Source: an uncultured bacterium (GTDB lineage Bacteria; Patescibacteriota; Patescibacteriia; Patescibacteriales; UBA12465). Taken from it: 62,851 bases of DNA. The notes under the pieces are model-generated. The model searched no databases. It saw only the letters and a list, made by a program, of their open reading frames with translations, and was not told the origin of the DNA. The stretch's first letter is position 1. The number at the start of each line of letters is the position of its first letter. Shown here piece by piece: positions 32,424-33,989 of this stretch. The stretch is from positions 1 to 62,851 of the forward strand of contig CAJAVM010000023.1 of NCBI GenBank assembly GCA_903945435.1, written 5' to 3'. Made by a program: the position numbers and the translations under genes.

Positions 32424-33989
32424 TTAACTCCTAACTGAGTATTCGCACCCACAAAACTTTTGACGATAGATTTCTAATTCCTTTGCCAACTCTTGAGATT
32501 TACGATAACCATCATTAGCTTGGAAATCTTCTTCTAAAAATTTAACCCCAAAACTAGAAGCTAGATCAGAAGACATTTTCGTAATCACTGCCTTATCTTT
32601 ATAGGGACTAGTTAAAAGCGTAGTACCAAAAAAATCAAAATTATTTTCTTTAGCTAATTTCGCCGTTTCTCTTAGGCGGTCTAAATAACAAATCTGGCAA
32701 CGAGCACCTCTTTCTGGGTCCGCTTCCCTACCTTTAACTTTTTTACACCAAGATTTATGTCCATAAGGAACTACAATCAAAGGAATGCTAAATTTTTCTG
32801 ACATCAATTTTACATATTCTAAGCGTTTATCATATTCTGCTTGAGATAAAAGATTAGGATTATAAAAAAACCAAGTTAACCTATATTTCGGTAGCAACAA
32901 ATCTCGACTAACATAAGTCCCGCAAGGAGCACAACAAACATGTAATAGTAAGGATGGCTTTTTGAGTTCTCTCTTTCTATCTAGAACTCTAAATGAAATT
33001 ACTATAATTAACATTAAAAATAACAACACCAACAAAGCTAAAACCTTTCCCCTGCTCTGTAAAAATAAACCGCTCAAACCAAAAGCGAGTGATAGAGAAT
33101 AAAAAACTAACACCGTTTTTCTCTGACCGAATCCTAAACTAAGAAGACGATGATGAAGATGTTTGTTGTCAGAAAATTTAAAAGGATTTTTTCCTTGCAA
33201 AACACGCCTAGTGATAGTCCAAACAACGTCAAGAATAGGTATCCCCATAATCAATAAGGCAATAGCAATCTTTCCCCCAGAAATAATAGCAAAAACTCCA
33301 AGCACAAAACCAACAAATAATGAGCCCCCTTCACCTAGAAATATTTTTGCTGGATGAAAATTAAAAATTAAAAATCCAAAAGCAGAGCCGGCTAAGATAA
33401 GCGCCCCTAAAGCGATATCTGGTTGATAATATTTAGTAGTAAGTGTAAATAAAAAGATAACTAATCCTCCGATAGCACCTACACCGCTAACTAGACCATC
33501 AACACCATCTAACAACTTAGTAGTATACATCATTCCTAATAACCAGGCGGCTATTAATACCGGGCCAACTAACACTAAATCTTGAAGATAAAAAAACCCA
33601 CCTAAAGGATTAGTAATTTTTTCGATTTCCACTCCGCCGATTACCACTGATGCAATTGCAAGTAGCGGAAAAATAATTTGCTTACTTGGCGAAAGATTAT
33701 ACTTATCATCTAAAATTCCTCCGATGATAATTACGAGCGCCCCGAAAAAAAAGCCCAAAAGATGTCTCCATTCTAAATTACCTGCTAAAAATCTCTCGGA
33801 ATATAAAAATAAAACTACAAAAAAAGATAAAAAAACTGCCACCCCTCCTAACAGAGGGATTGGTCTGCTATGGATTTTTCTATCTCCTGGCTTATCAACA
33901 ATATTAAAATAAGCAGCAATTTTTTTAATACCAAGAGTTAAAATAATAGACAATATAAAACTAGCTAAAAATGGGATAATGTAGGACAT
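32424..33989 (-). CDS. WecA/TagO (GT4, MraY-like) polyprenyl-phosphate HexNAc-1-P transferase fused to epoxyqueuosine reductase QueH
   Basis: N-terminal DKP..RK.H..P.PLLGG, G..DD, LLDG.DGL, NFHPAKIFLGE.GS and H.HHRL. C-terminal HVCCAPC, YNPN, RC..C...RL, TTL..SPYK and YRQ.FCGC. Confidence 0.88.
   Translation of the reverse strand: MSYIIPFLASFILSIILTLGIKKIAAYFNIVDKPGDRKIHSRPIPLLGGVAVFLSFFVVLFLYSERFLAGNLEWRHLLGFFFGALVIIIGGILDDKYNLSPSKQIIFPLLAIASVVIGGVEIEKITNPLGGFFYLQDLVLVGPVLIAAWLLGMMYTTKLLDGVDGLVSGVGAIGGLVIFLFTLTTKYYQPDIALGALILAGSAFGFLIFNFHPAKIFLGEGGSLFVGFVLGVFAIISGGKIAIALLIMGIPILDVVWTITRRVLQGKNPFKFSDNKHLHHRLLSLGFGQRKTVLVFYSLSLAFGLSGLFLQSRGKVLALLVLLFLMLIIVISFRVLDRKRELKKPSLLLHVCCAPCGTYVSRDLLLPKYRLTWFFYNPNLLSQAEYDKRLEYVKLMSEKFSIPLIVVPYGHKSWCKKVKGREADPERGARCQICYLDRLRETAKLAKENNFDFFGTTLLTSPYKDKAVITKMSSDLASSFGVKFLEEDFQANDGYRKSQELAKELEIYRQKFCGCEYSVRS

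Follow-up and report, generated by a model that had tools for sequence, protein, structure and literature searches.

Why should an enzyme expected to initiate lipid-linked glycans in the membrane share one polypeptide with a reductase expected to finish queuosine on tRNA? The question is raised by a 521-amino-acid (aa) open reading frame (ORF) on contig CAJAVM010000023.1 (assembly GCA_903945435.1) of an uncultured bacterium of the phylum Patescibacteriota (Patescibacteriales; UBA12465), of which the stretch analyzed here, positions 1 to 62,851, is called the window. We found that the frame is real and conserved within one family of ultra-small Patescibacteria in its order, and that it joins a predicted phosphotransferase of the GT4 family to a predicted epoxyqueuosine reductase, QueH. 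The explanation we favor, with a probability of roughly 70%, is a bifunctional fusion of neighboring genes (operon collapse) whose halves keep their ancestral roles. The frame and its parts are as follows.

32424..33989, minus strand: GT4-QueH fusion ORF, 521 aa, from ATG to stop (stop codon at 32424-32426)
32991..33989, minus strand: GT4 half, aa 1-333, predicted polyprenyl-phosphate N-acetylhexosamine-1-phosphate transferase with 11 transmembrane (TM) helices, from Pfam, TM profile, invariant residues and fold
32952..32990, minus strand: linker RVLDRKRELKKPS, aa 334-346, basic, 13 aa, from the alignment of family linkers and an AlphaFold2 (AF2) model
32427..32951, minus strand: QueH half, aa 347-521, predicted epoxyqueuosine reductase, from Pfam, alignment with structure 7LC5 and fold

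The fused frame and its junction

An initial annotation, made from the letters of the window, had described a single 521-aa ORF in which about 11 TM helices precede a complete QueH with all Cys motifs, and this description held. A hydropathy scan gave 11 TM segments. Pfam placed PF00953 (Glycos_transf_4) at aa 78-237 (E = 2e-26; 93.3 bits against a cutoff of 27) and PF02677 (QueH) at aa 347-520 (E = 2.6e-59; 200.7 bits against a cutoff of 23.5), the latter covering profile positions 1-174 of 175, with CCAPC, C431..C434 and C513-G-C515 all present. No NCBIfam model matched the QueH half. The junction, FRVLDRKRELKKPS, spans aa 333-346 (nucleotides (nt) 32952-32993).

We checked the junction by comparing independent assemblies. 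The identical 521-aa protein occurs on 13 independent contigs from different samples and assemblers, always with the same neighbors, and a search of 5.8 billion proteins returned at least 120 homologue clusters at 60-84% identity, all with both Pfam domains, some of them on contigs of up to 979 kb, and labelled Candidatus Falkowbacteria or Patescibacteria by NCBI. Frameshift errors do occur in metagenome-assembled genomes, and one in-frame stop (TAA, TAG) lies inside the QueH match of the fused frame in each of two genomes (G548:C4:104605-105126 and G528:C1:624298-624813), which could be a sequencing error, incipient decay or recoding. Nevertheless, given the 13 contigs, the homologue clusters, the presence of the fusion in 32 of the 37 genomes of the window's family and the single clade formed by their QueH domains, an error of assembly or gene calling, or a stop-loss found in this genome alone, is excluded for practical purposes. 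The initial annotation had named such an artefact or stop-loss, with relatives having two separate adjacent genes, as what would undo its proposal. The former did not materialize, with nine genera fused. The latter did: two genomes of the window's own genus carry the two genes split by 6-10 nt, and eight sister families carry GT4, VanZ and QueH as described below.

The fused frame is narrowly distributed. QueH was found in 83 of 401 evenly sampled genomes of the phylum, where about 80 of the 83 are standalone and a frame of about 520 aa occurs in the window genome only. Mapping across the 201 genomes of the window's order, a step that the initial annotation had called for, confined the fused frame to the window's family, where it occurs in 9 of 10 genera. 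Among 1.84 billion representatives clustered at 50% identity and searched with HMMER, only two full-length representatives and one fragment spanned both halves.

Regarding topology, hydropathy combined with the positive-inside rule puts the C-terminal tail, together with the DD, DGVDG, GEGGS and HLHH loops, on the side of the membrane rich in K and R. Because the tail and the catalytic loops share this cytoplasmic face, the QueH half is predicted to be cytoplasmic and held at the membrane beside the GT4 active-site loops, as the initial annotation had supposed in proposing a membrane tether and expecting a cytoplasmic QueH. In the AF2 model of the fusion (53 homologues as input; pLDDT 85, pTM 0.71), the TM11 helix (314-343) leads straight into QueH strand beta-1 (346-351). 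Across the family, the linker is a low-complexity K/R/S/P segment of 10-37 aa with variable sequence. Separate translation of QueH from an internal start was rejected: between M326 and C352 the frame has no ATG, GTG or TTG codon, and M326 itself lies within TM11. Described QueH proteins, in contrast, are soluble and about 180 aa long. Evidently, a tRNA-modifying Fe-S enzyme can tolerate anchoring to the membrane through a linker as short as 10 aa, a point relevant to its access to tRNA and to its electron donor.

Predicted activities of the two halves

The QueH half carries the sequence, motif and fold features expected of the enzyme. C352, C353 and C356 (CCAPC), C431, C434, C513 and C515 are invariant among 53 family members, and in the alignment with 7LC5 they match C9, C10, D13 and the later motifs of Thermotoga maritima QueH. 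The conserved cysteines of the CCxxC/D, CxxC and CGC motifs were reportedly assigned, in the work on 7LC5, as ligands of a [4Fe-4S] cluster and an adjacent metal site. Compared with T. maritima QueH (DUF208, PF02677; 7LC5, 7LC7, 9DEU), the match is full-length at 34% identity, and Foldseek superposed the two folds with a TM-score of 0.91 and a root-mean-square deviation of 1.5 A over 178 residues. The two differ in that the window protein has Cys at the position of Asp13; reading CCAPC as a deviation from the T. maritima CCAPD was rejected, as Cys is the majority state, found in 115 of 120 diverse QueH. Mean pairwise identity across the family is 62% for the QueH half and 71% for the GT4 half, and both halves are under purifying selection. 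The invariant Cys and the 62% identity also rule out a decaying QueH pseudo-domain.

The genome (979 kb, 97% complete) encodes Tgt, QueA and two YhhQ transporters, one of them in the window:

5162..5830, minus strand: YhhQ/Vut_1 preQ-type transporter, one of two in the genome, 27 kb from the fusion and in a separate transcription unit

Since neither QueG nor a second QueH was found in the genome, the fused QueH would be the only epoxyqueuosine (oQ) reductase available for the last step of queuosine salvage, and the pathway would run from import by YhhQ through insertion by Tgt and the action of QueA to QueH. The distance and separate transcription of this YhhQ speak against the earlier suggestion that QueH is tethered near the importer. 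Across the order, QueA and QueH occur together in 144 genomes, QueH alone in 6, QueA alone in 27 and neither in 24; QueA therefore accompanies QueH in 144 of the 150 QueH-positive genomes. Separately, 16 genomes of genus g369 in family f155 (G449, G462, G483, G499 and others) keep QueA with no detectable QueH; in these, either oQ stays unreduced in tRNA or another reductase acts.

The GT4 half likewise keeps its catalytic residues. D94, D95, D161, D164, E220, H277 and H279 are invariant among the 53 family members, and the acidic motifs DD (D94, D95) and DxxD (D161, D164) are retained. Its fold resembles those of MraY and human DPAGT1 (Foldseek TM-score 0.65-0.79), and it shares DD and DGxDGL with WecA, TagO and MraY (PNPT superfamily, PF00953), and 11 predicted TM helices and a cytoplasmic C-terminus with WecA. 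The HLHH at aa 277-280 matches the HIHH-type motif in the last large cytoplasmic loop, which we take to be a mark of WecA-type enzymes. The best NCBIfam match was the wecA model TIGR02380, at 124.7 bits, far below its equivalog cutoff of 326.05. Because of this shortfall, the WecA/TagO label of the initial annotation is too specific, and MraY/WecA-superfamily phosphotransferase is the safe name on sequence grounds.

Two motifs of the GT4 half depart from the PNPT superfamily. The third Mg-binding Asp (GDxGS) is replaced in KIFLGEGGS (aa 214-220; window 33330-33350; FLGEGGS with E220 invariant), and TTKLLDGVDGL stands in place of NxxNxxDGxDGL, the Asn residues being replaced. Inactivation of GT4 linked to the fusion was rejected as the meaning of this Asp-to-Glu change, for Glu also occupies the GDxGS site in 89 of 150 representatives of standalone orthologues. 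Throughout the Patescibacteria GT4 orthogroup, fused or standalone, we observed GE[GS]GS instead of GDxGS, which carries the Mg-binding Asp of MraY, WecA and DPAGT1, and TTKxLDGxDGL instead of NxxNxxDGxDGL; these traits may define a separate PNPT subfamily that handles its metal or substrate differently. Apart from the fused GT4, the genome has MraY as its one GT4 paralogue, which leaves the fused protein as the only candidate for initiating a lipid-linked glycan other than peptidoglycan.

Could the QueH domain instead have been recruited to a substrate linked to GT4? The initial annotation had raised recruitment to a glycan; in such a case QueH would act on, for example, an epoxide or other group on a lipid-linked sugar or polyprenol, and the fusion would be a two-step glycan enzyme. 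The prediction that the QueH active site and the GT4 catalytic loops lie on one side of the membrane would suit this idea, as would the long stem of the family's QueH clade (see below) and two fused genomes without detectable QueA. However, the seven Cys and the fold are unchanged, and no other oQ reductase was found in the genome, although its Tgt and QueA would make oQ-tRNA. Across the order, the presence of QueH follows that of QueA, and GT4 occurs whether QueH does or not (in 195 as against 150 of 201 genomes). In addition, split versions exist in the window's genus, and the QueH half still shares 45-58% identity with unfused QueH of sister lineages. We thus regard recruitment as very unlikely. 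Both halves are ordinary members of well-understood enzyme families and no new chemistry is indicated.

A probable path from operon neighbors to one polypeptide

The genes flanking the fusion in the window place it in a conserved neighborhood.

34332..37025, minus strand: ClpB-like AAA+ ATPase, the upstream neighbor of GT4 throughout the clade
31681..32412, minus strand: secreted protein with TSP3 repeats and a YkuD L,D-transpeptidase domain (Pfam), downstream, 11 nt past the fusion stop

Of the 201 genomes of the order, 195 encode a standalone GT4 orthologue of about 345-380 aa (55-69% identity). Forty of the 41 genomes tabulated for eight sister families have GT4 on the same strand directly upstream of VanZ-QueH, and the gap of about 370-1400 nt between GT4 and QueH is filled by a VanZ-like gene (PF04892), which either forms its own ORF, overlapping the start of QueH, or is fused to QueH in a protein of 300-370 aa. 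Conservation extends to the ClpB-like gene on the upstream side of GT4, and the ancestral gene order in the window's order was ClpB-like, GT4, VanZ, QueH. No VanZ was found in the window genome; the best tblastn match was no better than E = 0.66, which also rules out relocation of VanZ elsewhere in that genome. VanZ-like/QueH loci were noted in relatives at L017-L026, L008 and L047-L049. A recurrent 347-aa gene adjoining QueH in relatives, considered as QueA, proved to be a PilT-like ATPase.

The maximum-likelihood tree of QueH domains placed all QueH of the family in one clade (support 100/99), with the unfused QueH of genome G595 as sister to the rest (96/91). In G595, a search for a decayed VanZ remnant in the 334-nt spacer between GT4 and QueH gave just a weak 9-residue match (E = 1.4). 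Two further unfused forms, in G560 and G579 of the window's genus, are nested inside the fused crown; both have the identical gene order, with the GT4 stop and a new ATG 6-10 nt apart, followed by QueH. Because the fused QueH form one clade and split forms lie within its crown, the tree indicates one fusion event followed by secondary fissions. Conversely, seven proteins of 731-794 aa (P0013, P0016, P0020, P0023, P0027, P0041 and P0049) have gone further and are triple fusions of the form GT4-QueH-TM helix-TSP3-YkuD, absorbing the L,D-transpeptidase gene that in the window lies 11 nt downstream.

Taken together, the series runs from separate genes to a VanZ-QueH fusion in several families, loss of VanZ on the stem of the window's family, GT4-QueH, and, in some members, GT4-QueH-TM-TSP3-YkuD. 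In the window's family, VanZ was lost and the stop codon that had separated GT4 from QueH vanished a single time. On the favored reading, the N-terminal 11-TM half, as the cell's only polyprenyl-phosphate sugar-1-phosphate transferase other than MraY, would start a lipid-linked wall or surface glycan, while the C-terminal half, which a short, flexible and basic linker would keep at the cytoplasmic face, would reduce epoxyqueuosine to queuosine on tRNA. The shared polypeptide would stem from the two genes being neighbors in a tightly packed, streamlined genome, with no shared substrate, and the membrane tether of QueH would be tolerated and perhaps mildly useful.

The VanZ-QueH proteins of Patescibacteria/Parcubacteria (PF04892 and PF02677) offer a second way to read the same loci. 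They resemble GT4-QueH in that the N-terminus of QueH is joined through a short basic linker to a membrane module, and they share its order and locus, representing the evolutionary precursor state of its neighborhood; they differ in the anchor, which is a VanZ-like module of about 125 aa there and a 340-aa enzyme here, where VanZ is absent from the family. It is conceivable that membrane localization of QueH was itself selected, the partner module handling polyprenyl-phosphate or lipid II (mostly VanZ, here GT4), and that after the loss of VanZ the next membrane protein upstream took over anchoring. A membrane position might give QueH access to an electron donor, shield its Fe-S site or bring it close to precursor import. 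In favor of this, VanZ and QueH are fused or adjacent in 10 of 10 loci within the order but in 1 of 12 elsewhere in the phylum, public data contain dozens of VanZ-QueH clusters (annotated just as QueH), QueH sits covalently on another integral membrane protein in most of the family even though VanZ is gone from the window genome, and QueH stays on the inside in the topology of the triple fusions. Yet family f160 and several others encode QueH as a separate soluble ORF, and G579, G560 and G595 have neither VanZ nor the fusion and still keep QueH intact. The linker lacks conservation, standalone QueH predominate in Patescibacteria, and operon position alone accounts for the partners seen. We therefore consider selected localization unlikely, with more in its favor than recruitment. 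In its strongest form, in which QueH requires a membrane partner, it is somewhat less likely again; if true, the VanZ family would gain its first defined protein partner and the final queuosine step would have a spatial or functional link to envelope biogenesis.

Functional coupling, significance and local signals

Does the fusion then link two pathways? The initial annotation had suggested that glycan initiation is coupled to translation or redox status, an idea that gained no support here. Evidence points against an obligatory functional coupling of GT4 and QueH, because the linker varies, the fusion was undone twice within the window's genus, GT4 is present regardless of QueH, and GT4 fuses to several unrelated neighbors. 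A conserved linker was not found in the family, and neither was a specific co-occurrence of GT4 and QueH across the 201 genomes, where QueH tracks QueA instead. Nor did the GT4-QueH fusion recur independently, as all fused proteins fall in one clade of the QueH tree and in two 50%-identity representatives plus a fragment. Other members of the GT4 orthogroup are fused at the C-terminus to DUF192 (PF02643, COG1430; P0153, P0159, P0165, P0197, P0229, P0267, P0178 and P0241) or, once, to GT2 (P0181), and in P0160 (1231 aa) the ClpB-like ATPase stands at the N-terminus of GT4. GT4 thus appears to fuse to whatever gene adjoins it.

This pattern is that of neighbor-gene fusions in streamlined genomes: the partners are adjacent genes on the same strand, the linker varies, close relatives show fused, split and triple-fused states, and GT4 has alternative partners in ClpB, DUF192, GT2 and YkuD. 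It differs from such fusions in two respects, namely the retention of GT4-QueH across nine genera and the uncommon pairing that places a tRNA-acting Fe-S enzyme at the membrane.

Several observations weigh against an operon collapse with unchanged roles. Retention across nine genera could reflect selection instead of neutrality. The family QueH clade sits on a long stem of 0.32-0.44 substitutions per site, relative to VanZ-linked and standalone QueH, which is compatible with a functional shift and indicates that change in QueH probably accelerated around the time of VanZ loss. The association of QueH with QueA, at an odds ratio of 21, counts genomes as independent and ignores kinship, so that phylogeny is uncorrected, and the fused genomes G540 and G576 show no QueA (both are fragmented assemblies). 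Within the order, QueH is nearly always joined or adjacent to a membrane module, first VanZ and then GT4, which hints at some reason for QueH to sit at the membrane. Finally, GT4 has Glu for the third Mg-binding Asp of the superfamily, and its chemistry is a prediction from sequence.

The literature we searched holds no description of GT4-QueH or VanZ-QueH; the nearest paper found concerns clusters of QueA, QueH and Tgt in DPANN archaea (PMC8204110). The fusion is thus real and conserved and, within that literature, undescribed, as first proposed; ranking it as the window's best candidate for an undescribed system was an overstatement. The current names, "QueH" or "GlcNAc-1-P transferase", each hide the other half of the fusion proteins. 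What the locus provides is a cleanly resolved series in which operon neighbors are welded together, from three genes through VanZ-QueH, VanZ loss, GT4-QueH and GT4-QueH-YkuD to re-splitting, and this series cautions against taking every fusion as a pathway link. Additionally, the persistent pairing of QueH with a VanZ-like membrane protein in one order is a lead on VanZ function.

Three further features lie upstream of the fusion, in the 342-nt spacer that separates it from the ClpB-like gene.

34092-34277, plus strand: 61-aa ORF in the ClpB-like/fusion spacer, called in every independent contig of the species
34300..34325, minus strand: terminator-like hairpin directly past the ClpB-like stop, ACGCGTC, 9-nt loop, GACGCGT, then TTTTC, with a perfect 7-bp stem read from the sequence
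33995..34024, minus strand: candidate weak sigma-70-like promoter just 5' of the start codon, TTGTCT, 18 nt, CATAAT, with a regional match count at chance level

The 61-aa ORF has no Pfam match on record. Promoter and terminator scans of the region gave match numbers at chance level, and the terminator scan missed the hairpin at 34300..34325, whose loop exceeds the 8-nt limit of that scan. Because this hairpin directly follows the ClpB-like stop, it suggests that the fusion gene heads its own transcription unit.

At one locus of a relative (L017, genome G520), a 117-aa protein with TSP3-like repeats is encoded between GT4 and VanZ-QueH (2484-2837, minus strand). It resembles the N-terminal part of the YkuD protein in the window, and genes with TSP3 repeats thus recur at this locus.

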